Positions 12,400-42,207 of a stretch of 64,000 bases of DNA are shown here, one piece after another. Under the pieces are notes generated by a model that did no database searches, was not told the DNA's origin, and was given only the letters and a program-made list of their open reading frames with translations. Every line of letters starts with the position of its first letter. Position 1 is the first letter of the stretch. The translations under genes were made by a program, and so were the position numbers. The DNA is from a virus (taxonomy: Duplodnaviria > Heunggongvirae > Uroviricota > Caudoviricetes): IMG/VR virus record IMGVR_UViG_3300018080_000104, positions 131,454 through 195,453 of that record, one strand, 5' to 3'.

Positions 12400-14274
12400 C
12401 TAACCCCCGGTGGGCTTTAACACATTTTGCGGCCATTCCGTGCCAAATGTTTTCCCGGCAACCAGCGCCGGAACAAACGACGTCGACGCCGTATCGGACA
12501 CGCCGCCGCTGTATACGGCACCCAATAAACTGCGTTTTTGGCCCGAACCAATAAACCGCGTTAGCCAATCGGGGTCATGGCTCACTGTTTCCATAGCCCG
12601 AACCATCTTTGGCTCGAATGGGGGTTTCTCTGCGTGGACGTCCAACGTCTTGACGCCGAAATTGTCAAGATCCGCCAACATTGACGGCTTAACCTGTGTA
12701 CCTATCGTATAGTGCAACACCGGCCGCTCAAGGTATTTACCCACCGCTTGCTTGGGTGATGCTGATATCGTCCCGTCCCGGGGCACCCAATCACGTTCGA
12801 GCCGACTGTAGGACACTAGATCGCCGGGCAAATTGTCGTCGGTTTCATCGAGAATCTCGACGTTGTCGATCAGTCCCCTTGCAATCAATTCGACGTTTCG
12901 CCTGTTGACCCCCATGCCAGCATCCCTGTAGGCTTGCGTGAACGCTTGCACGAAGTACCGCCTACCTTCGCCGATGCCTTTGTATTTGACGATTTCTGCC
13001 GGATTGGGAATGCCGTCCGAGAGGACATCGCCTGCTTCCACCGTATCGCCCTTTTTGACTGTGACATCAAATCCAGGCGACACGTAGTGACGTTCTTCGT
13101 TGACCCATACATATTTGCCTCCGGCCGGTGCGTCATCCATCTTGGTTATGTGACCATCTATTTTGGCGTGTGAAGCGCCCGCCTTAAACGTTTTCGGTAC
13201 CTGTATCAGTTGGTTCAATCCCTGAAAACCCGACACGGATTTTGCTTCACCCTTAACACCGCCAGAATGTTTGGCCGACAACTGCCCCTGTGTGAGTTTT
13301 TCGCCCAGCGCCTGGGCTGCGCCCAATCCTACAGCATCGCCAAGATTCGGCAACGTGCCTCGTTCACGAATGCCGACATCCCGCGCATACACACCGCCGC
13401 CATCAGGGCCTCCGACAATCGGAGAACGGACAAGTAATCGCTTAAAGCCGCGGTTATCAAGATCGGCAAGAATCTTCGGTGTCAGAATAGTATTACGATC
13501 GTAGCCACCGATCGGCGACGCCAGCAGTGCGCCTACATTATCAGTATCATCCGTTGCAACCGGCAGCCCAGCTACGCGCGTCTTGTCCGTTTTGTCGTCG
13601 TCTTCAGCCGTAACAAGCAGACGATGGGCAAGCTGATTAAGCTGTTTTGAAAAAAAGCCGCTATCGGCAGTAGAGAATTTTGTAGCGATAAGACCTTTCC
13701 GGGCGCCAAACGTGCCTGCCCAGTACTCGGCAGGGCTTAGCCCTTCGGAATAGCTCTTCTGGACTGGAAACGGAATGATATTATCGTGGTGATCCATGTA
13801 CAGCATATCGCCGCCGATCAGCCTATTCAAATACATAGGACTGCCTCTGGCGCCGGACTGTACTTGCATGGCCAGCGGATTGGACATTTCCGAAGTCTCT
13901 TCGATGACTTCCTTCTTCAGCCGTGCATGCTCTGCATCGGTCGCCTCGATGATTTTCTCAGCTTGATAATCCTGTGGCCAGTTCTTTGCCATTATGTCCT
14001 GCAAACGGCGTCGCAGCCTAATTCGCGATGCCAATACCGCTGGCGGCGGTTGCAAATGCTCTAAGCCAAAAGAATTACCGCCCGTGCTATATGCAACATC
14101 GCGACCAACATCACTCAGATATTTGGCAATTTCGCTGTATTTGTCCGGATGCTTCTCCGCCACTTCTGCCAACAACGCATTGATACCCTTACGATCGAGC
14201 GAACGATTATAGTTCCGCATATCGTTCGGCAGGCCGCTATTGATCAAAATTTGTCCGACAGTCGTCTTAAGCAT
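12400..14274 (-). CDS. RNA polymerase beta' subunit, C-terminal half (trigger-loop region through the C-terminus).
   Basis: GQILINSGLP resembles beta' region F. GARKGLIATKFSTADSGFFSKQL resembles beta' region G ([23 protein letters not shown]). C-terminal GDTVEAGDVL block present. Confidence 0.8.
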   Translation of the reverse strand: MLKTTVGQILINSGLPNDMRNYNRSLDRKGINALLAEVAEKHPDKYSEIAKYLSDVGRDVAYSTGGNSFGLEHLQPPPAVLASRIRLRRRLQDIMAKNWPQDYQAEKIIEATDAEHARLKKEVIEETSEMSNPLAMQVQSGARGSPMYLNRLIGGDMLYMDHHDNIIPFPVQKSYSEGLSPAEYWAGTFGARKGLIATKFSTADSGFFSKQLNQLAHRLLVTAEDDDKTDKTRVAGLPVATDDTDNVGALLASPIGGYDRNTILTPKILADLDNRGFKRLLVRSPIVGGPDGGGVYARDVGIRERGTLPNLGDAVGLGAAQALGEKLTQGQLSAKHSGGVKGEAKSVSGFQGLNQLIQVPKTFKAGASHAKIDGHITKMDDAPAGGKYVWVNEERHYVSPGFDVTVKKGDTVEAGDVLSDGIPNPAEIVKYKGIGEGRRYFVQAFTQAYRDAGMGVNRRNVELIARGLIDNVEILDETDDNLPGDLVSYSRLERDWVPRDGTISASPKQAVGKYLERPVLHYTIGTQVKPSMLADLDNFGVKTLDVHAEKPPFEPKMVRAMETVSHDPDWLTRFIGSGQKRSLLGAVYSGGVSDTASTSFVPALVAGKTFGTEWPQNVLKPTGG

Positions 14275-14542
14275 CTGGTCGCATGTCTCCGGGTTTCCAC
14301 AGTTTACCTGGCGGTTGTGGTAATTGCTTCTTGTCGATGCGATCGATGATCGTAGTGCCTTTCACGCCCATTGCCTGCAGAGCATTCTCGAATCCTTCTT
14401 CGCCTGCATGCATAATAAAGATGTGCGACGGAGTCTGCTGCATTGCAACAGCGATTGGCGTTTCGTTACTGTCGTATATGACTAATCGGGTACATTCGAT
14501 ATTGTGCAATGCGCCCAATTGATTGTGTGTTTCAATGCGCAT
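14267..14542 (-). CDS. Hypothetical small protein, 91 aa, lying between the RNAP genes.
   Basis: ORF overlaps the flanking genes by a few nt at each end. No SD. Confidence 0.4.
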   Translation of the reverse strand: MRIETHNQLGALHNIECTRLVIYDSNETPIAVAMQQTPSHIFIMHAGEEGFENALQAMGVKGTTIIDRIDKKQLPQPPGKLWKPGDMRPDA

Positions 14543-15296
14543 TACTGTTCAGGCTGCGTGCCAGCGCGGCCAGCACGTCGAGATTCTTGCTTTGTTTCTG
14601 AAATGTTGCAGCACTGATAGGCTGTCCAACATCGTTCGCGCCGAGAATATTAGCGGCAGTCTTTGCCGGTTCTATGGGAGAAATTGGAGTTTGCCCTGCA
14701 ATACCGGGCAATGCAGCCGACGCTGCAGCGTCAGCTGGAGCGCTTGCCGCAGCATCTGTAGGCTGGCTTTGAGGCTGACTGCCCATAAGCGCCTGCGCTG
14801 TCGTCTGATCTTCGAGAATGTCATCAGGCAACGGCATGCCGGTTTGTTGGTACAAATTAGTAATGAGCTTGCGGATACGGCTTAACTCCATGTACATAAA
14901 TGCCGGATCGATCTTTTTCGTGCCGCCCCCGGGGCCTGCCGGCGCAGCCGCGCCTTGATTCGCCACAGCCGTTTGTACGGCCTGATCTATGGCCATCTGT
15001 ATTTCGGGAGGCATTGCCCCTGCCCCGCCGCCTGGCGGCATTCCTCCTGCCATTGGATCCATCGCTGATTCTGCACCACCGCCTGCCATCGGATCAACCG
15101 GCGGCGCTCCACCTGCTGCCATCGGATCCATTGGCGGCGCTGCAGCTCCCGCTGCCATCGGATCCATCGGTGGCGCTCCGCCCGCTGCCGGATCCCCCGG
15201 CGGCGCAAAAGCGACTTTTTGCCGGGCCGTCTCATTGTCGAGTCTCCAGGTCGCCATTTCGAGCAGCTGTGGATAAATCTGGTATTGCTGTGACAT
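14532..15296 (-). CDS. Low-complexity Pro/Ala/Gly/Met protein with four PPMDPMAAG repeats.
   Basis: 254 aa. AAGGA upstream. Repeats are visible in both DNA and protein. Confidence 0.5.
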   Translation of the reverse strand: MSQQYQIYPQLLEMATWRLDNETARQKVAFAPPGDPAAGGAPPMDPMAAGAAAPPMDPMAAGGAPPVDPMAGGGAESAMDPMAGGMPPGGGAGAMPPEIQMAIDQAVQTAVANQGAAAPAGPGGGTKKIDPAFMYMELSRIRKLITNLYQQTGMPLPDDILEDQTTAQALMGSQPQSQPTDAAASAPADAAASAALPGIAGQTPISPIEPAKTAANILGANDVGQPISAATFQKQSKNLDVLAALARSLNSNAH

Positions 15297-15351
15297 GTCC
15301 GAAGTCCTTTATTTGAGACGTGATTGCCATTTTGATAGCTTAGCTGTCTTT

Positions 15352-18300
15352 TTACGATTCCACAATCTCAACATGCTGTCCGACGCCTATTTCGCCGCGT
15401 CTGTAAGCATTGATAGCGTCCTGTTGTGTTCTGAACGTCCGAGTCGGTTTACCGTAATCTCGCTTGGCCGATGCTGCATAGATGCCGCCGACGTACTCGT
15501 TTGTCGGGGCATGTATTGGTTTGAATTCGCTGAGCGATAACAGGTTTTGCGACGGCATTAGCTTTGTTTTGGCCTCTTCGACGGCTTCATCGGAGCTGGG
15601 TACGTGAAACTGCATGGTATCGCCGTCAAAGTCGGCCCCGAAACCGCCCGTAATGAGTGGAGGAATTTCGAGCACTTGTGAAGACGTCAGTTGCGGCCAC
15701 GCTGCCAGTATACCGAATTTATGCAGTACCGGCGCCCGGGTAATTATCACCGGACGGGATGCCATTTCGGCCAGCAGCTCTCTTTTTGTCCTGTCAGTGC
15801 GGTCCTCGACTGCTCGGAGAGCCTGCAGCTTTGGCATACCTTTGCGAACCAGTCGCCGCACAAGAAACGGCTTGTATAGCGTCCATGCTTGTTTTTCCGG
15901 CAAGCCTACATGGTCCATATCGAGGTTCGGATCAGGCGAAATGGCCCCACGGCCGACCAAATCTACTGTCGACCCAAGCAATTTCCGCTGTACCATGCCA
16001 TGTTTGGGGCTCGATGCGAAAATTTGCTTCAAAATTCCCTTTACGTTGCATTCTCTGTTTTTTGGCGTGATCGGATTTCCCAGCCCCGTCACTGCTCGAA
16101 ATGCCTTATACAGTGCTAACCGCTCATCCGTAACGTCGTCGACTACCTCTTCCATGCTTTTCAGCGCCTTATTGGCGTCAAATAACTCTTTGTAGAGGTA
16201 GTTTGCGTCCGAAACCAGCGGTGTGCCGCTTTGCTGCATGACAGAAATGGGCCGAAAAATCGGCGGAAGCACTGGAACACGGCTCAAAAACCACTCTTTT
16301 GGGTGCTGTCCAAGCTTTTTAGCGCCTTGCAGGTACCGTAACCGCCGAATGGCCATGTCGCGGGCAGTTTTTCGGCCTAATTGCGCCTGATTTCTCGCTT
16401 GTTCGATCTCTTTATCGAGATTCATGCGGTCTAACGCGTTAAATAAGGCTTGCGGGCCCGTATTTTGTGTCTTATCCGCTGCCGGATCGTTGCCATACTG
16501 CTCTTTGCCGGCCAAAATAGCCTCATATTTGGCTTTGGTCAGCCCGAGAAGGTATCGAATCGGGTCTTCCATGACAGGATTTGGCATTTTTTCGTGGAGT
16601 TTGATGTAACTCCACCGTTTTCCGCCGTGCCCGCCAGTCATCGCTTCGTCAAAAAGCCCGCCACGGATCGGTGACAAGCGATCGACGCGCCAATCGACCG
16701 TATCTGCGTTCTTTAATTCCCTGTCGCCCGTCAGCGTCTTTGCATCTTTTTCCGTCATGGCCATAATGTTCAGCTTTGTGCCCTCTTTTACCGGATTTAT
16801 TCCGGCCGCACGCAGCGATTCAACAAATTTGGTGTAGACGAACGGTACTTCTGGCACCGGCGGCGAATATCCGCTCATGACTTGGCGCCAATAATCCGTA
16901 TTTTGTTGGCCGCGGATTAAACTAGAGTCGCGAATTGTGTTATAGGCCCCATGCGATAGTAGTGCATTCAGCTCAAGCATACCTACCCGCTTTGAACCTG
17001 TCGCGCCGCCCTTTGCCGGCGCGCCTTCGCTGGTATATGCGCCCGTTGCGCGGCCTTGGCTCTTCGCTTCTGCAGTGTGATGCAATTTCATCAGAAAGCG
17101 ATTGCCGGTTTGAATATTCTCGATGTTGCGCCCTGTATCTGGATCTTTGATAGTTTCAGTTGACGTCAAACCGTGTTTTTTCAATTCGGCCATCACCCAT
17201 TTACTTAGGCTTTGTTCCGTATCGAAATCCGGAAGCTTATAAGGCTGCCCCGTCTTCTCGACAATCTTTCCGAGCGCCGATTCGAGAATCTGTGCCGGAT
17301 TTCCTCGCGAAATGATGCCGAGCGGATTCAGCAGGACTTCGAATGGCCTGCCTTGTTGGTCTTGCGGCATGCGATTATCGGGAACAATTTTGGCTACGAT
17401 TCCTTTATCGCCCATGCGGCCGCTCATTTTATCTCCGACTTCCATCGGCTGCGCAGCTTTTACGATAACGTTGACGCCATTTTTTCCTTTGTACACATCT
17501 GTCACAGTGCCGTCAGCATGATGATCCCAAGTGACAGAAGCGTCAGCGTACGCGCGTTGTCGCCGGCCGATTTTCGGCCCTGTCCGACGTTCTCTTATCG
17601 CAAGGATCAACGGGTCATCGGCATGCACTGTCTCGCCGACCTTGATTACACCGTCGCTGTCGTACTTCTGGAGCAAATCCTTCGGATACTTGGCTGGAAA
17701 ACTGGCTATGAATGCGTTCTTACTGACTTTGGTCGCGTCGTCGAACTCCAGATTATTCTGATACATATGCTCGCTAGTTGCGCGCTTTGCAAAAGACTCG
17801 GAAACAACTATTGCGTCTTCGTAGTTGTATCCCTTGTACGGAATATAAGCCACTCGGGCATTCTTTCCGAGTGCTGTTGTACCTTGTTTATCTGTGAAGT
17901 TCGATGTTGCGAGTAATTGTCCGGGCTTAACTCTGTCACCAACGGCCACAACGGGTGTATTGTGCAAAAACGTTTTTCTGTTGTACGGCAACTGCTCGTA
18001 GATCTCGATATTATGCACTTTGCGATCTGTTCCACGGACCTTGATGTTCGATCCGGTAATATCGATGACCGTGCCTGCTACTTGACTGCGAACGGCACCC
18101 ATTTGTTCGCCGTACTTATCCTCGAACGATCTGTTTTCGCCAGGAATGCCGGCTTGTACAAACGGCGCTTCAGGATCTACTAGCGGCAGTGCCTGCGTCG
18201 CCATGCGGGATGCCATGGCTACTCGTTGCGGAAATGCGGCAGCTTTTAGCGGCACCAAATTAGCGAGCGGACCAAAAGCTTCTGTCATGTGTTTCAGCTG

Positions 18301-19728
18301 ATAATCAACTTTGTCTCGCGGAGCCATGACATGCTTTCCGCGTGAAATTGCACGTATGTTTGCCCGCCCGCTTTCCAGTTCGCCGGGAAATGCAACGGTA
18401 CTTTCTGCAAGTTGTTGTGGGGATCGCCAGACAGTTTTGCCGGTTCGCGGTTCTATATATTGTGCATATAGTGTGCCGTCTTTACCGTATCGTGTATTGA
18501 TAGCTACGCGGCCATCCACGCCAATGCGTGCGCTTTCCGGTGAATGCACAGGATCGATAAAGCCGAGGTGCGATGGCTGTACCGATCTGGCTTCGTCGGG
18601 AACAGCGTCCTGGGACGGAATCCCGCCTTCGCCCATCCGTGTGATACGATGTTGCTGATCGTACAATTCTGCCGGATTGATCTCTTCGAGTGCTCCTGCT
18701 AGTCCCGTGTCGAGCAATGCGCCTCGCATGCTTTTTTCGAATATGCTTGGCTGCATCCGCTGTAGAGATCCCGATACGGCTGCTTTCCAAAACATTCGGC
18801 GAACGTCTCCACTGCCCTTCCGGATGCGTTCTGCAAAAATATCTTCGGGGCCGAGTGTTCGCTGGAACATCAACGCGTCGCGATCGTCTGGAACGTCTTC
18901 ACCGCGATACACCCGCAGTAACTTAGCCGTAGCGGCCAGCATCGTGTCCAAGTCAACTTTATCGTACGGCTTACCTAACGTCCGTTTGGTCACTTCCGGA
19001 TCCAGCGTCATTTGCTGAAAAGCTTCTCGAAGTGCTTCTTCCTGTGTTCCAGCCGGCTTTTTATCCCGATAGAATTTGGCATACAGCTTTTTCAGGACTG
19101 CTGGGTTGTCCTTGCGCATATTGGCAGCAAATAATTCATTGCCCCAGGCCTCACGCAACTGTGTATCCGTAGCGCCCATCATTTTCATTGCGCTGATCAG
19201 CGGCAGTTTCGCCTGTGCGATAGCCAACCTAAATATGCCTGTCTCGGGATCTAATAGGTATCGATGCGCCCGCCCCTTAGCCACGTTGATGTGCGATTCC
19301 AGCTCTCCAGACTCCTTTTCGCGGGTGAAAATGCCCGGACGCAGCCGCATTTGCCGGGACATGCCGTAGTCGCTGCCGCGAAAAATAAACGTTCCGCGGG
19401 GAGTCATCCACGGTACAGTGGCTAGCGTTGCCCGCCGCGTATCGACTGGCGCATTTGTGGCTGTATCCAGCAGCTGCCATGTTCCTCGTAATCGGCGGCC
19501 AAGCGTTTTACCAGCTAACAGCGCTTCCTTTTCGTCTGCCCTTGTATACGATTCAGGGCCCTCATAGCCCACGTCTTTCAGCGCTAGTGTATATCGCTGG
19601 CCCACAATAGGCTCGAAGCGGTTGGCTGCATCCAATACGCTGGAGAATATGGCATCCCTAGTGACAGCCGGATTTCCAAATTCTCGCGCATCCGGCATGC
19701 CATCAAGCTGCATAAGAGGGATTGTCAT
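15352..19728 (-). CDS. RNA polymerase beta subunit fused in frame to the N-terminal half of beta' (includes the ADFDGD catalytic loop).
   Basis: Beta blocks: SHLGFIDPVHSPESARIG, NYEDAIVVSESFAKR, GSKRVGMLELNALLSHGAY. Beta' blocks: VPVLPPIFRPI, LLGSTVDLVGRGAISPDPNLDMDHVGLP, TRAPVLHKFGILAAWPQL...GGFGADFDGDTMQFHVP. Start chosen at ATG 19728 (MTIPLMQL); the track ORF extends to 19800. Confidence 0.85.
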   Translation of the reverse strand: MTIPLMQLDGMPDAREFGNPAVTRDAIFSSVLDAANRFEPIVGQRYTLALKDVGYEGPESYTRADEKEALLAGKTLGRRLRGTWQLLDTATNAPVDTRRATLATVPWMTPRGTFIFRGSDYGMSRQMRLRPGIFTREKESGELESHINVAKGRAHRYLLDPETGIFRLAIAQAKLPLISAMKMMGATDTQLREAWGNELFAANMRKDNPAVLKKLYAKFYRDKKPAGTQEEALREAFQQMTLDPEVTKRTLGKPYDKVDLDTMLAATAKLLRVYRGEDVPDDRDALMFQRTLGPEDIFAERIRKGSGDVRRMFWKAAVSGSLQRMQPSIFEKSMRGALLDTGLAGALEEINPAELYDQQHRITRMGEGGIPSQDAVPDEARSVQPSHLGFIDPVHSPESARIGVDGRVAINTRYGKDGTLYAQYIEPRTGKTVWRSPQQLAESTVAFPGELESGRANIRAISRGKHVMAPRDKVDYQLKHMTEAFGPLANLVPLKAAAFPQRVAMASRMATQALPLVDPEAPFVQAGIPGENRSFEDKYGEQMGAVRSQVAGTVIDITGSNIKVRGTDRKVHNIEIYEQLPYNRKTFLHNTPVVAVGDRVKPGQLLATSNFTDKQGTTALGKNARVAYIPYKGYNYEDAIVVSESFAKRATSEHMYQNNLEFDDATKVSKNAFIASFPAKYPKDLLQKYDSDGVIKVGETVHADDPLILAIRERRTGPKIGRRQRAYADASVTWDHHADGTVTDVYKGKNGVNVIVKAAQPMEVGDKMSGRMGDKGIVAKIVPDNRMPQDQQGRPFEVLLNPLGIISRGNPAQILESALGKIVEKTGQPYKLPDFDTEQSLSKWVMAELKKHGLTSTETIKDPDTGRNIENIQTGNRFLMKLHHTAEAKSQGRATGAYTSEGAPAKGGATGSKRVGMLELNALLSHGAYNTIRDSSLIRGQQNTDYWRQVMSGYSPPVPEVPFVYTKFVESLRAAGINPVKEGTKLNIMAMTEKDAKTLTGDRELKNADTVDWRVDRLSPIRGGLFDEAMTGGHGGKRWSYIKLHEKMPNPVMEDPIRYLLGLTKAKYEAILAGKEQYGNDPAADKTQNTGPQALFNALDRMNLDKEIEQARNQAQLGRKTARDMAIRRLRYLQGAKKLGQHPKEWFLSRVPVLPPIFRPISVMQQSGTPLVSDANYLYKELFDANKALKSMEEVVDDVTDERLALYKAFRAVTGLGNPITPKNRECNVKGILKQIFASSPKHGMVQRKLLGSTVDLVGRGAISPDPNLDMDHVGLPEKQAWTLYKPFLVRRLVRKGMPKLQALRAVEDRTDRTKRELLAEMASRPVIITRAPVLHKFGILAAWPQLTSSQVLEIPPLITGGFGADFDGDTMQFHVPSSDEAVEEAKTKLMPSQNLLSLSEFKPIHAPTNEYVGGIYAASAKRDYGKPTRTFRTQQDAINAYRRGEIGVGQHVEIVES

Positions 19729-20602
19729 GTCGATCTCGCGGAATGTTTGATTCTGCCGTAAAATGAATCGGCGGCACGCCGCCAGTGCGCTGCAAAGCAC
19801 GTCGTCGCATCGCTTCTTCAGTGATCGCAGGCTCGCTGCGTTTACGAATAAAATCGTAAGACAGCTTGCCCGATATCAGCGCTGCCAGAATTGCTGCGGC
19901 CGTAATTGCTCCGCCGGTATATTTAAGCCCGCGATCGGTGGCGTCAAATAATGATGCTTGCTTTTCCAGCTCGGGCATGACTGCCGCCGTTATCGTATCC
20001 AGGAGTTGATCATCGCTGCGCTTTTTCAGTCCAGTGGCTATCTCTTCTTGATACTGCTGTTTGATGTCTTCCAGCTCTTTTTCTTTTTCGGACCGACGTC
20101 GCCAGTCCATAAATGCATCAGTGCCTTTGTAGCCGGCAAGCGCTGCCATTCCGGCTGCAGGAATTCCCAGCCCCATTACGGCCGGTATGCCGAAATAGGT
20201 TCTAGCCTTTGTTCCGCCTTGCCACCAACCGGGGCCTTTCAGCAGATTTTCGTAAATCAGCTCTGCAAGCCTGCCGCTTATGCCACTGCGGAATTCCGGC
20301 GCCCTTTCAGCAGTCTTAAGCTGTCCCAGCTTCTCTTCTTCCTCTTCTTCTACGGGCTTTATCGAAGGCAACTGTACTCGCTGCGCATACGGTGAAGGCA
20401 GTTTCGGCAGTTTGCTGCCACGAAATGCGCGCCCTACGCCCATCGCGCCGCGAGTTAACACGCCAGCGCCCAATGCAGCTAGAATTAGATCGACCATGTA
20501 TTGCGAAGCTTCGCGCCGCAAGCCGGTCTGCACCGGCGTCAATTCGACTTTGCCAGCAAACTTAGTCAGGGCTTCGTAGCGTAAAGTAGTTGGGGCTTCC
20601 AT
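19703..20602 (-). CDS. Hypothetical protein, 299 aa, with a glycine-zipper-like hydrophobic segment.
   Basis: SD GGGAGtaacgggaATG. Poly-Glu run (EEEEEE). Confidence 0.5.
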   Translation of the reverse strand: MEAPTTLRYEALTKFAGKVELTPVQTGLRREASQYMVDLILAALGAGVLTRGAMGVGRAFRGSKLPKLPSPYAQRVQLPSIKPVEEEEEEKLGQLKTAERAPEFRSGISGRLAELIYENLLKGPGWWQGGTKARTYFGIPAVMGLGIPAAGMAALAGYKGTDAFMDWRRRSEKEKELEDIKQQYQEEIATGLKKRSDDQLLDTITAAVMPELEKQASLFDATDRGLKYTGGAITAAAILAALISGKLSYDFIRKRSEPAITEEAMRRRALQRTGGVPPIHFTAESNIPRDRHDNPSYAA

Positions 20603-32384: not shown

Positions 32385-34163
32385 TTACGGTAGCTGCGGC
32401 TGCGGCGGCTGTTGTGGTTGTTGTGGTTGTTGCGCTGCGGACTCGGGCCCGAACACTGGCGGCGCCGGAGTAGCTGGCGGCGCGGGAGCCGCTGGGCCTT
32501 GTGTCCCCCGCTGTCCAATCATGGCCAACGGCTGTACGCCGGGTATTTGATGTGTCGTACCGCCGGGATTCAATTCTCGCAATTCTCGCTTGGTCGGGAT
32601 TCCTGCCAAACGGAAAATGGCCTCTGCAGCGTCGATAGGCTGCTTTCCTCGCCGCTGCAATGTCGTTACGAACCTTCGCGGAAAATGTTCCTGCGCAATA
32701 CCCGTCCATCCGGCTTCTTGTCTGGCTCTATTTGCGTATTCGCGCATCTTTTGTACGGATTGTGGTCCATATCGCAATACTTCCTGCAGTTTCTCGTAAG
32801 CCGACATATCCGGGTCGGACATCAATGATTTAACGCCGGCCCGCTGCGCAAGCCGCTCTGCCATGAGATTCAATGCATGTTGTCGTTGCATCTGTATTTT
32901 CGGAGAATTCCCGGCATAGCTCCCGCGGATATTGGTGACTTGCGGCATCCACACGCTAGCAGCCTGCGACATTATTGCATTCTGCAGTGCCGGATTGTTT
33001 GCCAGATACGTTTGCTTGTTGAATCGTGATTGGTTGAAGATATTATCGATCGTAATGCCTTTGGCATTGATCGACTTATTCATCATGTTTTTCCATTCCC
33101 TAAACGACAGTGGTACAGGCCCTCGTGGCGTTTGTTTTATGAATCCTTGTCCTTGGTTCAGGGCCTGAGCAAATCGTTCGCCGGGTGATCCAGGCTTAAA
33201 GCCGCCAATCAGAGGGTCATTGATGATTCTAGCGGTTGCCGCGGCTGCGCTGGCTCGCCAATCCCGTTGCAATAATCGCCAGATTCCAGAACGAGCTTCG
33301 GCAATGTCTGTCGGGGACAATCGCAATGGCTGTCCGGCGGCGCTCGCAGCTGCGCCGTATAGGCCCGCTTTACCGCCTTGCTCTGTAGCATAATTAGCGA
33401 TACGGGCTAATTCGGCATACCGCTCCGGATTCTGAATACCTCCGCCCTGTTCAAATGCGTTCCACACAGACTGTGCATCTGTCGGAAATCCCATCGTTCG
33501 CATTTGATCCTTGGTCACGGCTAGCGACATGGTCAGCCGCCGTAAATTGTTTTTGAACTGCACGGGATCCGTTGTTGGCAGTTGCCCCGCCTGCGCCGCC
33601 TGCATAATAATTTCGGCCATGTCATTGGCTCGGAAGCCAGCACTCAAACTGGGATCCTCATTGAAAGCCTGCGCAACTGCATCAGCAAACGGTTTTGTCT
33701 GCGTCGGATTCATTCCGCGATTCTGCATCGCCCGCTGTACAGCGCCCCCGATAGCGGAAGCTCCGCCGAAAGCGCCGTTGGTCAGTTGATCGAGCCATGG
33801 GCCCAAAAATTGTCCAACGGGGCCGGCTAAAATGGTGCCAAGCTGCTGCTGCACTTTGGGCGTCCAGTCTACGCCCATGAATGCCAATAGCCCGCGGATA
33901 GCGCTCATGACTTCCTGCTGCGTAGTGCTGCTCCATTGCGATCCTTGCGCTGCCAGCACGTTCTGCTGCATGGCCTGTTCTTGGAGCCTGCGAGTCAGCG
34001 GAACGTCCGGACTCCCGCCGATTGCAACACGCTCAGGGCCGGCTATCGATTGAAGCAACGACTGCCCAACAGGCACGCCTACCATGCTGCCAGCTTGCTG
34101 CGCAAACTGCCCAAAGGGTATATTCGGTGACATGTCGGCTTGTTTTTCAGGCATAGCAGCCAT
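32385..34163 (-). CDS. Gln-rich hypothetical protein, 592 aa (possibly a virion-internal protein).
   Basis: ATG 34163 follows GGAGGGccacgga. C-terminal QQPQQPQQPPQPQLP tail. Confidence 0.5.
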   Translation of the reverse strand: MAAMPEKQADMSPNIPFGQFAQQAGSMVGVPVGQSLLQSIAGPERVAIGGSPDVPLTRRLQEQAMQQNVLAAQGSQWSSTTQQEVMSAIRGLLAFMGVDWTPKVQQQLGTILAGPVGQFLGPWLDQLTNGAFGGASAIGGAVQRAMQNRGMNPTQTKPFADAVAQAFNEDPSLSAGFRANDMAEIIMQAAQAGQLPTTDPVQFKNNLRRLTMSLAVTKDQMRTMGFPTDAQSVWNAFEQGGGIQNPERYAELARIANYATEQGGKAGLYGAAASAAGQPLRLSPTDIAEARSGIWRLLQRDWRASAAAATARIINDPLIGGFKPGSPGERFAQALNQGQGFIKQTPRGPVPLSFREWKNMMNKSINAKGITIDNIFNQSRFNKQTYLANNPALQNAIMSQAASVWMPQVTNIRGSYAGNSPKIQMQRQHALNLMAERLAQRAGVKSLMSDPDMSAYEKLQEVLRYGPQSVQKMREYANRARQEAGWTGIAQEHFPRRFVTTLQRRGKQPIDAAEAIFRLAGIPTKRELRELNPGGTTHQIPGVQPLAMIGQRGTQGPAAPAPPATPAPPVFGPESAAQQPQQPQQPPQPQLP

Positions 34164-34179: not shown

Positions 34180-37014
34180 CTACATCTTAGTGGGTTGCCC
34201 CGGTTTCTCCAAGACAACGTTCGCCGCTTTTGATTGGAATAGCTGCGATGCGACAGCCCGCAGCTGCGAGCCTTCGGCCAGCCAATCCTTAAACTGATCT
34301 AGTGTCAACCCCGTAATATTGCCAAAGCCTGCCCAGCCTTTCTCGTAATTGGCCATGTAGGCAGCTTTGGCGGCCTCCTTAGTGTCAAATCCGAGCATTA
34401 CTTTGTGCTCGTCGAACCGTTTGGTCTGCGGGTCGACCTGATCGACCACGAAAATGAGCTCAGTATCCGGATTGGGCCCAAGGAAAACATCGACATGGTC
34501 TCCGTCCTTATCTTCGGTTCGGCGGATGTAGCCGTAGTGGTTCTTCATCGCGATCGACCACTTTTTGCCGTCCCGCGAAACACCGGATCGCGTACTGCCT
34601 TTGGCGTTCTCGATAGTGACGTCGAAGCCGTGCATGCGCACATGCCCCTTGCGGTAATTGCCGGCTTCGGCCTGCGCTTCCGTGGGTTCTTGTACTTTCC
34701 GCGATTCGGCGGCGATCAACTGCGGCAGTGTCATTGCTTCCTTGACTCGCCCGCTTCGTTTCATGTCGGACCAGCCGCAGACCATGCAATGCGGATGCAG
34801 ATATTCGTCGTCGACGTGCGGCGCCCAGTATGTTTTGTGGCCGCACTCGCCGCAGATCATATCATCGTCGGACGCCGCCTTACTCTCTTGCAGCGGATAA
34901 TCCTCGTGCAGTGCGTGCAAAGCTGGCGCCCTCAATGCTCCTGACGGGAACGCTCCCTGACTCTTGATGCGGGCCATACGACCGATAAAGGCATCAGGGT
35001 CTGTTTGAAGCTCACGACGCAGTTCGTCCGACAGTCCAGTGCCGACACGTCCAATTGTCGGCCCATCCGGTCCTCGCGAATAAGTAAAACCACCTGCTCC
35101 GGTATCGCGGTACTTACCTTCACCGGGAAAGACTCCTGTAATCCATACATCGTGTTCGTCTAGTAGTTTGATTTTTTTCGGTTTGCCCGGTGGATCGTGA
35201 ATCACGATCCCTTCTTCGGTAAGCGGGTGGCGGCCTTCTGCAATTTCCCGCCAAAGCGATTTAGCTCCTTCCGGAGTTGTTGCCTCCTCCGGCGCGTGGA
35301 AGACATCTTCCGGCAGGTGAGACAAAACCTTGCGCAACATGGCCAGCCGCTCGGCATAGGGAGTCTCCTTGGCTATCGGTTCTTTTCCGAGTTGTTGAAT
35401 GTCATAGAGCATTTGCTTCAGCTTGACTCGCTGGTCTCGCTGCTTGGCAATGCTGTTGGCAACAGTGGCGTTGAGGATTCCTCCGAGTTCTTGCGGCGGA
35501 ATAGTTAGGCGTCCTGTTTGTGCCGGAGTGCGTGTGCCGTAGATTTCTCCCTTCAAAACTGTACCGACGAGCTCTTTTGGTATTTGTAGTTCAGGGCGTC
35601 CGTGGAGTATTCGCTCCGTGTGAACTAGCGGCCGCCCTGTCTCTTTGGCCACCCGATACGACATGATTTCGACGCCGTTTTCGAGTAGACGCGTAAGGCT
35701 TGCGGCCCCGTCGATTTTAGCCTGTACGGATGCGCCTGGCTTCAATTTAGCCAGCACGTCTTCGACCTGCTCTTGCGGAATCTTGGTATAGTGTACCTTA
35801 TTGTACGGTGTAACTTCCACCGGCGTTGTATTGACCAGCAGCCACGCTTTATCCTTGAAGCTGCGCGGCTTGATCAGCGCAAAGCGTTCGGGATGCCGCT
35901 GTCCGGCCATTGTGAAGCTGATCTTATCCGGTGTAGCCTTGGTGATAAGGATCTTTCCCTTCCGATGGGTTCGCACTGTGCCAGCACCGTAGCCGCCTCT
36001 AAGCGCGCCTTCGAACGGCATGTATCCGTGGTGATGAAGCGGCTGCCGGTAGATCGAAATTTTCTTTTTGGCATCGGGAAGCTCCTTTCTGGTGGCCCAA
36101 CTGAAGGCCCCCATAGCAGGATCGCCAAACCGGATATCGAAATGTTCGCCGGCACGCCGTGCATTGTGTTTCTGTATGACGAAATCCAGCAGCTGCCCGG
36201 CGCGGACTTTAGAAAGATCTCCCATGTTTTTGATGTCGGGAATTCCGGGAATTGCTACAGCACATTTCATAAGACCCAACAGATTAGCCCAGTCATTATC
36301 ACCGCCATGAGGATCAGCATCGGCCAACGGACCTCCCGCCAAGTCTCGTCCCAACGCTCCGTCTGTTCCCGCCGCTTTTGTATGCGGCCGTAGTAGTATC
36401 TGGCTAGCAGCCTTCGCTTGACCAATTCGCCCAAGGTAGGCGCTTCCTGTCGCAGGCGCTCCAGTATATTGTCCCGAGACGCCCTGTCGTAGTTCGCTAT
36501 TGTCTTTGCTATTCGTTCCGCTTCCTCTCGCGTTTCCGTGCGCGTTAGATATCGTCGCCCCATTGCCTTTCCCCTTGTCATTCTGGTAAAGGATGCCCTT
36601 ACGCCGTACCGCAACAGTAATGTGAAAAGGATATTTTGGCTGCGGAGGCAAGCCATACGTCCTGCGAAATCGCTCTAATTCGACGCTCTTGACCGGAATG
36701 ATCCACGCCTTAGACATCTCTTCCCAGCCGGCCGGCTCGATAATCTTCATTTTACCGACTATGTAATGAAAATCACGCCCTCTTTCCGAAACAGCTCGAG
36801 CTCCGCCTATCTGCGCAAGTTCTTCGGGACGGACAACAGAGATATGGGCATTCAGCTGCCCAGTCTCGTTTGTGGGCAGTTCGATTCCCGGCTCGTCGAG
36901 CGCGTCGAAGTAACCGCGTACTATGGCATTCGGCACGGCGAGCAATAACCAGCCGGATTTGGAGAAGTACAATTTCCCCACTTGCTGTGAATCTGTCGCG
37001 ACTTTTTCATTCAT
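34180..37014 (-). CDS. Multidomain nucleic-acid end-healing and sealing protein: 2H phosphoesterase + LigD-type 3'-phosphoesterase + ATP-dependent ligase + Zn ribbon + inorganic-pyrophosphatase-like domain.
   Basis: Two HxT/S motifs (AHISVV, FHITVA). PE block FVIQKHNARRAGEHFDIRFGD. Ligase motif I KIDGAAS, motif IV EGIVIH, motif V KIKLLDEHDVWITGV. Zn ribbon CGECGH...CMVCGW. PPase-like NHYGYIRRTEDKDGDHVDVFLGP...NYEKGW. Its start overlaps the stop of the PAS gene (ATGAATGA). Confidence 0.7.
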   Translation of the reverse strand: MNEKVATDSQQVGKLYFSKSGWLLLAVPNAIVRGYFDALDEPGIELPTNETGQLNAHISVVRPEELAQIGGARAVSERGRDFHYIVGKMKIIEPAGWEEMSKAWIIPVKSVELERFRRTYGLPPQPKYPFHITVAVRRKGILYQNDKGKGNGATISNAHGNARGSGTNSKDNSELRQGVSGQYTGAPATGSAYLGRIGQAKAASQILLRPHTKAAGTDGALGRDLAGGPLADADPHGGDNDWANLLGLMKCAVAIPGIPDIKNMGDLSKVRAGQLLDFVIQKHNARRAGEHFDIRFGDPAMGAFSWATRKELPDAKKKISIYRQPLHHHGYMPFEGALRGGYGAGTVRTHRKGKILITKATPDKISFTMAGQRHPERFALIKPRSFKDKAWLLVNTTPVEVTPYNKVHYTKIPQEQVEDVLAKLKPGASVQAKIDGAASLTRLLENGVEIMSYRVAKETGRPLVHTERILHGRPELQIPKELVGTVLKGEIYGTRTPAQTGRLTIPPQELGGILNATVANSIAKQRDQRVKLKQMLYDIQQLGKEPIAKETPYAERLAMLRKVLSHLPEDVFHAPEEATTPEGAKSLWREIAEGRHPLTEEGIVIHDPPGKPKKIKLLDEHDVWITGVFPGEGKYRDTGAGGFTYSRGPDGPTIGRVGTGLSDELRRELQTDPDAFIGRMARIKSQGAFPSGALRAPALHALHEDYPLQESKAASDDDMICGECGHKTYWAPHVDDEYLHPHCMVCGWSDMKRSGRVKEAMTLPQLIAAESRKVQEPTEAQAEAGNYRKGHVRMHGFDVTIENAKGSTRSGVSRDGKKWSIAMKNHYGYIRRTEDKDGDHVDVFLGPNPDTELIFVVDQVDPQTKRFDEHKVMLGFDTKEAAKAAYMANYEKGWAGFGNITGLTLDQFKDWLAEGSQLRAVASQLFQSKAANVVLEKPGQPTKM

Positions 37015-37618
37015 ATCGCTTCAGTTCTATGTGCTTTGGCTCCGGCTGCACTTGGCTGACGTCGCCCGAGATATACAGTTTCTTCTCTGCGCCGTACTTG
37101 TCTGGATAGAACAGCAGCACAAAACTCTTATGGGCATTTTGCGCGCCGGTTACTTTTCCTTTAACGCGGATCGTAGTGCCGTCTTTGCACATTGCATCGG
37201 TCGCCATTTCGAGTACGTCGCCCTCGAACAGCCCATTGCGCAGTTCTTCGTCCGCCCAAAGCTTACGATGTATATCTCGCAATTCGTCACTTGGCATAAG
37301 AAATGCGGTCGACGATCCCACAATCTCTTTTTCTTCCCAGCCAAATAACTTTGTGGCGCCGTTATTCCAGGCAATAATGTCGCCCTCTTCATTTGTCGCG
37401 ACGATCGCGGTAGGAATGTGTTCGATCACATTTTGCCATAACCGCGCTTTGGCAGCCGCTGCTTCGGACCTGTCCTGCGCTTTTTGCAGCCCGTATGCGA
37501 GCGCCGTAACGGCTACAAGCAGTCCGCAAAATATGATCGTAGAGATCAGCTTCCGGCATTTCCAGCCAGCATGCTGAATTTCAGTCATCGGCGTTTCCAG
37601 TCGCTGCAACGTAATCAT
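37007..37618 (-). CDS. Membrane-anchored PAS-domain protein.
   Basis: SD AAGGAGGacaagaaATG. One TM helix, then a PAS-like fold (IEHIPTAIVATNEEGDIIAWNNGATKLFGWEEKEIVGSSTAFLMP...DGTTIRVKGKV). Confidence 0.6.
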   Translation of the reverse strand: MITLQRLETPMTEIQHAGWKCRKLISTIIFCGLLVAVTALAYGLQKAQDRSEAAAAKARLWQNVIEHIPTAIVATNEEGDIIAWNNGATKLFGWEEKEIVGSSTAFLMPSDELRDIHRKLWADEELRNGLFEGDVLEMATDAMCKDGTTIRVKGKVTGAQNAHKSFVLLFYPDKYGAEKKLYISGDVSQVQPEPKHIELKRYE

Positions 37619-38025
37619 TTCTTGTCCTCCTTTGACCTCTTACGACGCGATTTCGTCGTTTTGATTTCCTTATCTTCCGGCGGACTGGGCGCTTCTTCCC
37701 GTTTAACATCGGGCATTGCCTCGGCATGCAAGACCAGTTTGAGTTTGCCGCCAAGGAGCAGCATGGTCAAATCCACTACGTTGGCGCCGCCGATTCCTGT
37801 AAGTCCGCTGATAGCTAACAAAAGGAAAATATTGTCTTTGGCATCAAAGTAATTATACAACGCCAAGCAAATAAGCAGACCAACAATGCCGGAAAATAGA
37901 AAGGCGACTGTAATGCTCCGCAATGTTATTTGTTCCTTGGACCGCAAATGGGCAGCGGTACCGCCAAAAGCGGCAATGCCGAATGCAGAAAAGAACACCC
38001 AAATTGGTTCAAATTCTGCTGGCAT
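37615..38025 (-). CDS. Small membrane protein (3-4 TM) with a Lys-rich C-terminus.
   Basis: SD GGAGAcgcggaATG. Its stop overlaps the PAS gene start (ATGA). Confidence 0.55.
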   Translation of the reverse strand: MPAEFEPIWVFFSAFGIAAFGGTAAHLRSKEQITLRSITVAFLFSGIVGLLICLALYNYFDAKDNIFLLLAISGLTGIGGANVVDLTMLLLGGKLKLVLHAEAMPDVKREEAPSPPEDKEIKTTKSRRKRSKEDKK

Positions 38026-38314
38026 TCCGCGTCTCCGTACTGCCCAGTTTATCGGCAGCCCCCTTTGACATCCCCTCGATCGTTATTTACGACGGCCAAA
38101 GGTCCAGGGCTCTTTTGAGCCTTGCGACGGTTCTTACTGCCGCGTCCGCCGCTCCTCCTACCGCGCCTCAGTACGCTCTATGGCACGGGTGCCTGAGCCC
38201 GGCCACCGCGTCCGTGGTAGTTGCCGGACTCTCCTAACCAGTCAGCGGCTTGACCAAGCCACCGACAAACTGTTATCCGACAACATACAGTATCTAGGCA
38301 CATTACAAAAGTGC

Positions 38315-38351
38315 AGGTGTTGTGCCAAACTTCATGTCTGACACAACACCT
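38315..38351. promoter_or_regulatory. Perfect 10-bp inverted repeat with a 17-nt loop (AGGTGTTGTG...CACAACACCT). Operator or terminator candidate.
   Basis: Seen directly in the 400-bp intergenic region between the RHH gene and the membrane/PAS/ligase operon. More GC hairpins lie at about 38376-38415. Confidence 0.4.
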
Positions 38352-38702: not shown

Positions 38703-39344
38703 TTAGTTGGCATTAAGCAATTCTTCGGCAACTACCAGCTGGTTTGTAGCCCCGACTAAGAATTTGTCTTCTACGGCCCGAATAATGTTTATGCAGCCGT
38801 ACGTTTGATCCAGATCCCTGGCTCGTTGCAGCGGTACGCCAGCAATACCGGCAATAGCTGCCCGGATGACGGCCTGGTGTGTCACCACCACAATTTGCTG
38901 CCTCGGATGTGACTTTACGCACTTTTGCATAAACTGCAATGCCCGCGCTTGCACAGCGCCGAGCGTTTCGCCACCGCCTAATGCATTATCGCGCGGATCC
39001 CGCAAATACGCGCTAAAGGCATTCCCGTCACCGGCAGCCGCCTGCTGCCATGTCTGTCCTTCCCAGCTGCCGTAGTCGACAGCATTCAATTCTCCGGCGA
39101 TTCTAAACATTGTCGTGTCGCAGGCATTCATCAGTATTCTTGCTGTTTCGGTAGCCCTGTAGGCGGGACTAGTATAGATTGTGTGCAAATTCCGCCGACA
39201 TAGCGTCTTTGCTAATTGCTGTATTTGTTGTTTGCCGTCGGCCGCCAATCCGGCGTCCAACGTACGGCCCAGAATGATAGGCACAGGCAAAGCGTCGTTG
39301 ACGGTCTTGCCACAACAAAGCAAATACAGCACACAATCTGTCAT
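38703..39344 (-). CDS. Histidine-phosphatase / phosphoglycerate-mutase-family protein with a degenerate active site (RHGET replaced by CCGKT).
   Basis: ATG 39344 follows GGAGccaaaa. Blocks LYLLCCGKTVND, YTSPAYRATETARI, GSWEG, GGETL, VVVTHQAVIRA. Confidence 0.65.
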   Translation of the reverse strand: MTDCVLYLLCCGKTVNDALPVPIILGRTLDAGLAADGKQQIQQLAKTLCRRNLHTIYTSPAYRATETARILMNACDTTMFRIAGELNAVDYGSWEGQTWQQAAAGDGNAFSAYLRDPRDNALGGGETLGAVQARALQFMQKCVKSHPRQQIVVVTHQAVIRAAIAGIAGVPLQRARDLDQTYGCINIIRAVEDKFLVGATNQLVVAEELLNAN

Positions 39345-40906: not shown

Positions 40907-41596
40907 CTAGTCTTGGTCATTTTTGGTAATTCGTATGCCTCGCAACAGCCGTTCATGCGCGCTGACCTGCCCCTGATCAGATTCTGCAGGTCGCGTTTTA
41001 GCATACAAATAAAGGCCAGGCGTTATTACGGGAGTAGTGGCCAAATATGATGCGTTGGAGGCTAAATATGCCACGTCGGCTTCAGGAATCTGACGGCATC
41101 CTGGTAAATCTTGATTGGGCCCAAAAATAGCAACAACATGTCTATTCGGCGGAACCGTGATACGTTGTATGCTTGCTCTGCCATAGCTATGTCGCAGGCG
41201 GCGAACACAAGCTATTGCAGCGGTTTCGGACAGATATGCGCTATAACGCACCCATTGCTCGGTCCATTTCTCGACGGTATACGGCATAGACGTACAGCAA
41301 CCGTTACAAGGACATACGACCACGTCGCCGCCTGCTATACGACCATCCGCATCTACGACATGCACTTCGCACGCAGGCCTGCCAGTTTGTTTGGCTATGC
41401 GCAATGTAATACGTTCATCGTACCATGGCGATACAATCACTGCGTGCTGCCGTTCGCGTGTCAAGTAAACGACGTGCCCGGCATCCTGCCAAGACAACCA
41501 TGGGCCTGCAGGCACCGGAATCAAAGGATACATAGTATCAAATGACACTGATAATCCCCCTTCTTCTTTTTCATGCCAATACAACAGTGTAATCAT
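40907..41596 (-). CDS. Hypothetical protein, 229 aa.
   Basis: Its start overlaps the stop of the upstream sulfotransferase gene (ATGA). Confidence 0.5.
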   Translation of the reverse strand: MITLLYWHEKEEGGLSVSFDTMYPLIPVPAGPWLSWQDAGHVVYLTRERQHAVIVSPWYDERITLRIAKQTGRPACEVHVVDADGRIAGGDVVVCPCNGCCTSMPYTVEKWTEQWVRYSAYLSETAAIACVRRLRHSYGRASIQRITVPPNRHVVAIFGPNQDLPGCRQIPEADVAYLASNASYLATTPVITPGLYLYAKTRPAESDQGQVSAHERLLRGIRITKNDQD

Positions 41597-42207
41597 TTGC
41601 CAAACTCAAAGCCCCATGTCATGATGTCATCCTTAAATTTCTCAGCAACTATTTGCCTAGATTCTGCGTCATAATATGCTGTATACGGAAGCCCGTGCCT
41701 AGCAGCATCTTTGTGTATGTGGGGTAATTTCGACGTAGGAATCTTCAACAGCCTACACAGGTTATTCCAGTCTTCTAGCAAATGCTCAAACCTGATAATG
41801 AAGTCAGCTTGAAATGCTCCATCTACGGTAAGGAAGTCTATCTGCTGACGCCGATGAGCTAATCTTTCGTGCGGATTCCCTCCGTTTCGTGGCCATTCCT
41901 CCCCTTTCGTCATCAAGTCTTGCTTGAACGCCTCTGCCGATGCCCTGTGCTTTGCGTGTGAATGATAACTAGATACTGCTCGCGACCATGAGTTCCTAAT
42001 CGGCGCTACTATCAAGTATTGTTGTAGCCATTCTGGTTGCACAAACCCGTTGTCCGATAATTCCTGTATGCTCAAATGTTGTCTACAAAAATCCTTCGTT
42101 CCAACTTCATGTGCGTCACTATCTATGCGCCGTATGGCCTGCGTCAAGCTGCCACCGGCGCACTTGGGAATATGGACGAATATCAGTTTGAGTTTGTGCG
42201 AAATCAT
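41593..42207 (-). CDS. Sulfotransferase (Sulfotransfer_2-like; HIPKCAGGS resembles the PAPS-binding HIPKTGGT).
   Basis: N-terminal LIFVHIPKCAGGSLTQAI motif. Confidence 0.55.
   Translation of the reverse strand: MISHKLKLIFVHIPKCAGGSLTQAIRRIDSDAHEVGTKDFCRQHLSIQELSDNGFVQPEWLQQYLIVAPIRNSWSRAVSSYHSHAKHRASAEAFKQDLMTKGEEWPRNGGNPHERLAHRRQQIDFLTVDGAFQADFIIRFEHLLEDWNNLCRLLKIPTSKLPHIHKDAARHGLPYTAYYDAESRQIVAEKFKDDIMTWGFEFGK

Follow-up and report, generated by a model that had tools for sequence, protein, structure and literature searches.

An uncultivated jumbo phage encodes a predicted DNA end-healing and sealing polypeptide joined to 2H and InPase domains behind two membrane proteins

What would a phage do with a single polypeptide that carries a 2H phosphoesterase, a LigD-type 3′-phosphoesterase (PE), an ATP-dependent ligase (LIG) and a family I pyrophosphatase (InPase) domain, and that is encoded directly behind two membrane proteins? 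This question is raised by a 944-aa open reading frame (ORF) in a 64,000-nt stretch of IMG/VR record IMGVR_UViG_3300018080_000104 (the window, whose coordinates are used throughout; the whole phage genome is ~190 kb). The source is an uncultivated jumbo phage of ~185–200 kb, and its contigs are 183–199 kb long. A preliminary description had proposed a self-contained break-repair pathway with a membrane sensor attached. We read the 944-aa protein, with moderate confidence, as an enzyme that heals and seals the ends of DNA, or of DNA with ribonucleotide termini, fused to a 2H plus InPase module as ‘beads on a string’ with its catalytic residues intact. In related phages, the two predicted modules that it joins are found apart from each other. 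The finding is solid, and wider than the preliminary description supposed; what we say about function, we infer.

The positions of the three minus-strand ORFs and both overlaps noted earlier were confirmed. The 136-aa ORF and the ORF of the 203-aa PAS protein share 4 nt (ATGA; junction ...AAATGATT), and the end of the PAS ORF shares 8 nt (ATGAATGA) with the start of the 944-aa ORF (junction ...TATGAATGAAAA). GGAG-type sites precede the 136-aa ORF, the PAS ORF and a 592-aa ORF downstream, while the junction sequence holds no recognisable Shine–Dalgarno (SD) site before the 944-aa ATG. Translation of the 944-aa ORF therefore probably relies on coupling, and in our model the three genes would be co-translated. 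An identical 944-aa protein is recorded on eight metagenomic contigs of 50–200 kb, so we discount an assembly artefact.

Are the domains what they seem? The 2H domain matched the Pfam family 2H-SAK (PF22547, residues 52–139, E = 1.5e-9). The motifs H57-I-S and H131-I-T can be read in its sequence, and two HxT/S motifs on a 2H fold place it in the 2H superfamily. Going by the title of the Pfam entry and a sentence that cites the source, 2H-SAK is the RNA-repair ‘Swiss Army Knife’ family of 2H proteins. No sequence-level similarity of the domain to any solved 2H protein was found. The ‘Swiss Army Knife’ name reportedly originates in a 2016 RNA-repair paper by Burroughs and Aravind.

The PE domain matched LigD_N (PF13298, residues 281–382, E = 1.9e-8; 34.9 bits, with the cutoff at 31.1) and the NCBIfam family LigD_PE_dom (TIGR02777, E = 4e-11, with a score far under the equivalog cutoff). 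In the AlphaFold2 (AF2) model this region is all-beta and confident, with a predicted local distance difference test (pLDDT) value of ~90, and its relatives in the PDB are CkoPE (3p4h) and MbaPE (3p43). Residues H283, H291, D293, R295, H327 and Y331 are 95–100% conserved (n = 91 homologs). They align, in that order, with H36, H42, D44, R46, H78 and Y82 of MbaPE, the M. barkeri enzyme, in which all six are essential as shown by mutagenesis (PMC3082917). The domain is presumably Mn-dependent.

The ligase core matched PHROG 114 (ATP-dependent DNA ligase, residues 411–705, E = 2e-21). Motif I reads K433-I-D-G (K433/D435/G436), and motifs III, IV and V are present, with conservation of 90% or more among 23 aligned relatives at G489-E490, E601-G602 and K614/K616. 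All 50 matches listed by Foldseek for the PDB were ATP-dependent DNA ligases (E down to 1.7e-13), including those of T4 and Chlorella virus, M. tuberculosis LigD, LigE and archaeal enzymes; the OB domain profile PF14743 gave a weak match only. As modelled, the ligase is of the DNA-ligase type, with a nucleotidyltransferase (NTase) and an OB domain, and not of the Rnl1, Rnl2 or RtcB type.

The InPase domain matched positions 1–134 of the 135 in its profile (PF18823, residues 779–912, E = 6e-59, 198 bits) and contains the motif NHYGYIRRT...DGDHVDVF. Residues E802, Y827, Y829, D837, D839, D842, D868, E869 and K871 are 97–100% conserved in homologs, and we take them to correspond to residues of the E. 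coli pyrophosphatase. The closest sequence in the PDB is the C-terminus of the Pa193 portal gp19, which is unresolved in the structure. Between ligase and InPase lies a putative Zn ribbon, whose four Cys are kept in the closest homolog (P0002). Thus, of the five domains named in the preliminary description, the 2H, PE, ligase and InPase assignments hold by profile, motif and fold, with profile matches to the phosphoesterases and the pyrophosphatase and the catalytic Lys in place. The Zn ribbon has its Cys but matched no profile and is modelled with pLDDT < 50. The AF2 model otherwise bears out the domain folds, the disordered linker that follows the 2H domain also falling below 50.

This linker contains several copies of a short motif that recurs in the family. 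Outside domain cores, K-x-[AS]-[AGSVT] was observed 388 times across the family, against 205 +/- 13 expected, and in most of 79 homologs a K-x-A-A/S motif stands directly before the GIPD start of PE. The motif (AKAAS, MKCAV, SKAAS, SKAAN) is found at almost every domain border in P0001–P0120, the best 120 of the relatives described below. It may be a signal for proteolytic processing of a polyprotein. No peptidase domain was found in the 944-aa protein, and HExxH motifs occur only in relatives.

How might the domains act together? In the mechanism that we propose, one module would be PE-LIG, in which a LigD-type PE is joined straight to a minimal ATP-dependent DNA ligase and which would serve as the common ligase of this phage group. 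The other would be 2H plus a polyvalent-type InPase, encoded behind a small protein with several transmembrane (TM) segments and a TM-anchored, often PAS-bearing protein. Judging by domain identity, the 2H domain would open 2′,3′-cyclic phosphate ends, and PE would strip terminal 3′-phosphates or trim 3′-ribonucleotides to leave a 3′-OH. The ligase, adenylylated on Lys433, would then seal 3′-OH/5′-P nicks, either in duplex DNA or where the DNA has a 3′-ribonucleotide, and InPase would hydrolyse inorganic pyrophosphate (PPi) or a nucleotide substrate.

The family places this protein in context. A search of 5.8 billion proteins gave 183 relatives, many on contigs of 100–235 kb, and domain architectures were counted in the best 120 of these (P0001–P0120). 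PE and ligase occurred together in the order PE then ligase in 97/97 clusters. PE-LIG was accompanied by 2H in 34 clusters and by InPase in 21; 10 clusters held 2H, PE, ligase and InPase together, and 8 of these 10 also had a DxDGT HAD phosphatase. In IMG/VR we found 49 PE-LIG loci, about half of them encoding bare PE-ligases of 457–560 aa; 3 of the 49 PE-LIG ORFs carry InPase. By contrast, tblastn searches of 50,697 GenBank phage records with the whole protein and with its N-terminal 710 aa found neither the full architecture nor any PE-ligase. They yielded InPase matches (462 records) and weak matches of the ligase region to ordinary phage ligases (25–28% identity). That the 2H-PE-ligase-InPase fusion is undescribed, as was first supposed, agrees with these records and with the literature searched. 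Surveys of jumbo phages and of NAD and ADP-ribose do not describe it, and searches on LigD or phosphoesterases in jumbo phages returned nothing relevant. By its predicted architecture, the 944-aa protein is a fusion particular to its lineage, in which other modules have joined a PE-ligase found throughout the clade.

Relatives add further modules, namely SNF2, C39 peptidase, NUDIX, SET and GNAT domains, inteins and HExxH motifs. A P-loop kinase is fused in P0026, P0070 and P0081 (P0026 reads 2H-kinase-ZnR-PE-LIG), a HAD phosphatase in about 24 clusters, and a histidine phosphatase (His_Phos_1) to the PE-ligase in P0084; in many relatives PE-LIG is fused to SNF2 DNA translocases. Relatives that add both the P-loop kinase and the DxDGT HAD phosphatase form what is, by predicted activity, a complete heal-and-seal kit. 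In two lineages, represented by L003 and the P0016 locus, a gene of 178–180 aa directly upstream of the InPase-PE-LIG gene encodes 2H on its own, and PAS is absent. We favour DNA as the substrate because of the DNA-ligase fold, the wide occurrence of stand-alone PE-LIG and the SNF2 translocase fusions. We favour a healing role for the accessory domains because kinase, HAD and His-phosphatase domains are fused in relatives, because 2H is adjacent even when unfused, and because of its 2H-SAK class. In the window itself, a His_Phos_1 gene (38703–39344, minus strand, E 4.5e-39) lies two genes upstream, and the fusion in P0084 suggests that it is a further end-healing component.

Two other features of the relatives were noted. 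Hint/LAGLIDADG inteins interrupt PE in several of them (P0013, P0021, P0034, P0041, P0074, P0087, P0088), in P0013 immediately before the catalytic HxDxR motif. A conserved C-terminal domain of ~80 aa (‘FYLRALRTT...HHWLDR..QG’), absent from the 944-aa protein, is found in P0006–P0010, P0017, P0025, P0031, P0042 and P0091–P0098, and could be a targeting or docking module.

What do the two membrane proteins contribute? The 203-aa protein has a single TM segment (aa 21–46) followed by a PAS domain (aa ~58–168; PF00989, E 8e-13). When a profile built from six phage homologs was compared with the PDB, the top 14 matches were all haem-PAS O2 sensors (E 6e-20 to 1e-13). DosP (6e-20) and FixL (8e-18) scored best, the next family reached 2e-8, and the window protein as a single query likewise ranked FixL and DosP first. 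His117, the one invariant histidine (motif [IM]P..LR..H), falls in the alignment on His77 of DosP, the proximal haem ligand, and is kept across phage PAS homologs of 15–25% identity. The 203-aa protein has no output domain, only its TM anchor, and the charges flanking this segment (+2 vs +1) leave the topology ambiguous. These comparisons support a predicted haem-based gas or redox sensor, which in our model would be an optional O2/redox-type input; literature searches found no reports of a phage-encoded haem-PAS.

The 136-aa protein has hydrophobic segments at aa 33–61 and 66–84 by hydropathy scan, possibly a third at aa ~8–24 (by eye only), and a Lys/Arg-rich C-terminal tail. It belongs to a family of 273 clusters of 111–157 aa, on contigs of up to 206 kb, with no Pfam match. 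Its small size, hydrophobicity and basic tail would suit a class I holin, but the profile matches stay under threshold: the match to PF16083 (LydA-type holin; E 5e-4, 20.5 bits) is under the cutoff of 28.4, that to PHROG holins is weak (E 1e-5), holin profiles match 2/12 family members, and the homologs are all unnamed.

The trio of small TM protein, TM+PAS protein and 2H-PE-LIG recurs in L002 (P0008), L005/L041 (P0026) and L006/L007 (P0012), with 20–23% identity between PAS proteins and 27–40% between small TM proteins. Scanning IMG/VR with a small-TM profile gave 32 loci, and in 29 of these 32 a 2H protein is encoded downstream within 1 kb; these 2H proteins are multidomain, 372–645 aa long and usually without PE-LIG. 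The gene between encodes either a TM+PAS protein of ~200 aa or a TM stub of 60–98 aa that ends where PAS would begin. A PAS domain is present in 17 of about 36 loci, counted with a hidden Markov model. Of the families in the block, small TM and 2H are conserved best, in 31 and 32 of the 36 loci, respectively. Thus, the conserved partnership is one of membrane protein(s) with the 2H module, within one phage clade, and PAS is optional. The sensor proposed earlier is in part upheld: the TM link is real in one clade, and the trio does recur, but the link tracks 2H and not the ligase, and PAS is missing from about half of the small-TM loci. The probable role of the membrane proteins, in our proposal, is to anchor the 2H-bearing protein at the inner membrane or to gate it there.

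Many of the loci L012–L039 also contain, after the 2H gene, a conserved protein of ~83–133 aa (mostly ~100 aa) whose N-terminal half is rich in Pro and which has a TM segment at its C-terminus (for example L012 7990–8391 and L023 7844–8152). With TM genes 5′ and this gene 3′, the 2H protein has membrane-protein neighbours on both sides; no homolog was seen after the 944-aa ORF in the window. In L010/L011 (6275–8065) the small TM gene is followed by one for a 596-aa multi-TM protein with a C-terminal PAS, and no 2H gene comes after it.

The 592-aa ORF, which we call domain X, starts 14 nt past the stop of the 944-aa ORF and has its own GGAGG (Table 1). It resembles internal segments of P0054, P0044, P0052, P0040, P0030 and P0113, and of a 1350-aa PE-ligase ORF in L050 (22–27% identity, E 1e-12 to 1e-5 throughout), and it matches the gene immediately after the PE-ligase in L073/L074. 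Its counterpart in related phages is a helical segment of ~450 aa that lies within several of their PE-ligase and 2H proteins. The 592-aa ORF has a Q/P-rich C-terminus, and Pfam, PHROG, PADLOC and PDB profiles gave no relatives. We regard it as a probable fourth gene of the operon and a probable fourth module of the system of the 944-aa protein. At the other end, a terminator-like hairpin of 16 bp (38315–38351) closes the gene that precedes the operon. The non-coding stretch 5′ of the operon is ~400 nt long, in a genome that is elsewhere tightly packed. The GC-rich leader folds with −115.7 kcal/mol (z = −2.64, more stable than shuffles), and neither it nor the window matched an Rfam family. 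The leader is the probable start of the transcription unit.

Table 1. Positions of the operon, its domains and its flanking elements in the window
Feature	Position (nt)	Strand	Basis or content
944-aa multi-enzyme ORF	34180–37014	−	2H - linker - PE - DNA ligase - CxxC..CxxC - InPase
2H phosphoesterase domain, aa 9–142	36589–36990	−	H57xS59 + H131xT133
Disordered linker, ~114 aa (aa 143–256)	36247–36588	−	pLDDT < 50; K-x-A-A/S motifs at K201, K213, K250
LigD-type 3′-phosphoesterase (PE), aa 257–398	35821–36246	−	PF13298, TIGR02777
ATP-dependent DNA ligase core, NTase + OB, aa 399–706	34897–35820	−	PHROG 114, fold search
Putative Zn ribbon, aa 719–748	34771–34860	−	C721xxC724 ... C743xxC746 read in sequence
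InPase domain, aa 769–925	34240–34710	−	polyvalent-protein type, family I pyrophosphatase
203-aa membrane-anchored PAS protein	37007–37618	−	PF00989 + TM scan
136-aa small membrane protein, opens the unit	37615–38025	−	ORF list + hydropathy
592-aa ORF (domain X), 3′ of the 944-aa ORF	32385–34163	−	homology to internal segments of relatives
Non-coding leader 5′ of the 136-aa ORF	38026–38351	−	hairpin search + folding

Does the 944-aa protein then work as one coupled pathway? Several observations weigh against this. A six-frame search by regular expression found no genuine Walker-A ORF that could supply a 5′-kinase, either in the 944-aa protein or in the window (one antisense ORF was spurious), so the protein alone would handle breaks with a 5′-phosphate. 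With a ligase of the DNA type as well, the self-contained route for 2′,3′-cyclic-P/5′-OH breaks put forward in the preliminary description is not sustained. Nor is its idea that InPase clears the PPi of the ligase. InPase typifies the polyvalent proteins associated with virions; 16 of 37 InPase-bearing clusters, mostly 2H+InPase proteins, have no ligase, and the 462 GenBank phage records hold it inside DarB-like, portal, internal head and ‘tail’/virion proteins. This distribution does not support InPase as a partner dedicated to the PPi of the ligase. InPase can be N-terminal, central or C-terminal among relatives, where domain order is freely permuted, and most PE-LIG proteins have neither 2H nor InPase. 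The 2H fold is equally near anti-CBASS Acb1, ns2 and poxvirus cGAMP phosphodiesterase (PDE) and near cyclic phosphodiesterase (CPDase)/LigT, and the long linker with its repeated border motif is compatible with cleavage into separate enzymes. Other ORF families are common to 20–26 of the 36 loci, and this wider clade synteny makes the TM–2H adjacency a weaker sign of a functional link. The predicted activities of all the domains of the 944-aa protein are drawn from domain identity, and the fusion may reflect co-expression or co-delivery instead of one pathway.

A polyvalent effector polyprotein is one way to account for such points. The 2H (Acb1-like) and InPase domains, with NUDIX and HAD in relatives, would destroy nucleotide signals of host immunity or other nucleotides, PE-LIG would be the phage DNA ligase, and the parts would be fused for co-expression, possibly for co-packaging or co-injection, and maybe cut at the linkers. 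We keep this as a strong rival, though a somewhat unlikely one. InPase and 2H are among the phage-type polyvalent domains predicted to be packaged in virions, and that type of 2H has not been observed alongside RNA ligases (PMC5512222). The virion and portal settings of InPase, including the Pa193 portal C-terminus, the C39 peptidase, SNF2, SET, GNAT, NUDIX and HExxH additions in relatives, the free permutation with 2H+InPase proteins that have no ligase, and the enrichment of the linker motif at domain borders all fit it too. However, Pfam puts the 2H in the RNA-repair family and in no other 2H family, 2H lies next to InPase-PE-LIG even as a separate gene, and the kinase, HAD and His-phosphatase fusions are sensible as end-healing enzymes. 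The window, most of whose ORFs are orphans, yielded no recognisable portal, MuF, capsid or other head gene, and no protease was assigned. Dedicated repair of RNA, in which tRNA cut by anticodon nucleases, or RNA damaged by other RNases (2′,3′-cyclic-P/5′-OH), would be rejoined under the control of a membrane sensor, seems to us quite unlikely. The 2H-SAK classification speaks for it, as do RNA-repair kits known from jumbo phages and the presence in the family overall of 2H, kinase, HAD and ligase (for example P0026), the enzyme set of fungal Trl1 or of T4 Pnkp plus a ligase. Yet the kinase is absent from the protein and the window, the ligase resembles OB-bearing DNA ligases, PE-LIG is frequently fused to SNF2 translocases of double-stranded DNA, the window has no tRNA genes, and the PAS sensor is optional. 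The two membrane genes could also be a lysis-timing pair, a class I holin with a membrane-anchored antiholin-like regulator, which stands beside 2H by conserved synteny and has no functional tie to the enzyme. This we think unlikely. The several hydrophobic segments, highly charged C-terminal tail and weak LydA-type and PHROG matches of the small protein are in keeping with it, as are a second gene with one TM segment and a dispensable soluble domain and the broad synteny of the block. On the other side stand the sub-cutoff holin matches in 2/12 family members, the lack of any recognised endolysin or spanin near the membrane genes, the translational coupling to an enzyme gene that has no SD of its own, and the greater conservation of the small TM and 2H families than of the rest of the block. 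Improbable, in our judgement, is an arrangement in which the enzyme and domain X are tethered or gated at the inner membrane by the small multi-TM protein and an output-less haem-PAS, so that repair of the genome or of RNA, counter-defence or lysis timing would be coupled to the respiratory state of the host, with a polyprotein possibly cut at K-x-A-A/S linkers.

How does a DNA end-healing and sealing enzyme of this kind, our preferred reading, compare with known systems? As in LigD and the stand-alone archaeal PEs (PaePE, CkoPE and MbaPE), its PE has a complete His/His/Asp/Arg/His/Tyr site and, as in LigD, is joined to a minimal NTase+OB ligase. The chemistry predicted to be shared with them is Mn-dependent 3′-phosphate removal and 3′-ribonucleoside resection, then nick sealing. 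Unlike LigD, the protein is encoded by a phage, has no POL domain (primase-polymerase of the archaeo-eukaryotic primase type) in any profile scan, and has no Ku partner recognised among about 50 window ORFs scanned. It also adds 2H, the putative Zn ribbon and InPase, and its NCBIfam scores are far under the equivalog cutoffs. Phage polyvalent proteins likewise combine multiple shuffled, linker-joined domains, InPase and 2H among them (PMC5512222), and the SNF2, papain/C39-like peptidase, SET, GNAT, NUDIX and HExxH additions in relatives are of that kind; the 944-aa protein differs from them in having no MPTase, MuF or portal module. In the survey of such proteins (Iyer, Burroughs, Anand, de Souza, Aravind 2017, PMC5512222), LigD-PE and DNA-ligase modules go unmentioned, with zero occurrences of ‘LigD’, and the authors state that they never saw their 2H versions together with RNA ligases.

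With Trl1, the fungal and plant ligase-kinase-2H CPDase, the 944-aa protein shares a 2H domain and a ligase of the covalent lysyl-AMP type in a single polypeptide, and the resemblance to Trl1 or T4 Pnkp plus Rnl1 goes further in those relatives that also have a P-loop kinase and a DxDGT HAD phosphatase. In contrast to these, its ligase is a DNA-type OB enzyme and not Rnl-type, no kinase is found in the protein or window, and PE and InPase have no counterpart there. Unlike Acb1 and viral 2′,5′-PDEs such as ns2 of mouse hepatitis virus (MHV), its 2H is 2H-SAK by Pfam and is fused or adjacent to end-healing and ligase modules. The PAS domain resembles FixL and DosP (EcDOS), which account for its top 14 PDB matches, with His117 at the position of DosP His77. 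Unlike them, it is encoded by a phage and has an N-terminal TM anchor only, with no kinase, phosphodiesterase or other output. Each enzyme type is known; it is the combination and the operon for which the records and literature searched gave no description.

Elsewhere in the window, split genes for multisubunit RNA polymerase (RNAP) beta/beta′-like proteins (624 aa and 1482 aa) lie at 12400–19800 on the minus strand, and on account of these RNAP genes of its own we read the phage as a jumbo phage. In the relatives L005 and L008 the RNAP gene is only 3–5 kb downstream of the ligase gene. An 876-aa ORF at 3084–5714 (minus strand) contains an intein, and many of the window ORFs are orphan. A cluster of sugar-modifying genes at 41593–62253 (minus strand) includes Sulfotransfer_2, an NAD-dependent epimerase, a nucleotide-diphospho-sugar transferase, a NodZ-like protein and a GT47 exostosin-like glycosyltransferase. 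Its ORF at 41593–42207 was considered as a kinase and rejected, being a genuine Sulfotransfer_2 match. Similar genes neighbour the ligase in relatives: L005 has an epimerase there, and the P0016 and L003 loci have glycosyl- and sulfotransferases. A PADLOC scan of the three operon genes and two neighbours gave no match.

What would the finding mean? If our reading is right, a clade of uncultivated ~200-kb phages would use a LigD-like PE-ligase, absent from 50,697 GenBank phage records, as its standard ligase. The PAS protein would be the first candidate for a phage-encoded haem-PAS sensor. The partners of the enzyme, namely the small TM family, the output-less haem-PAS protein and domain X, are uncharacterised; a defined context would be gained for three dark-matter families, the small TM protein, domain X and the C-terminal domain of relatives. 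New compact end-healing and ligase enzymes would become available for biotechnology. The modular repair kit of these phages (2H, HAD, kinase, His-phosphatase, InPase and SNF2) would parallel the end healing of bacterial non-homologous end joining and the chemistry of eukaryotic tRNA ligases, and the concept of the polyvalent protein would be widened to DNA and RNA break repair.

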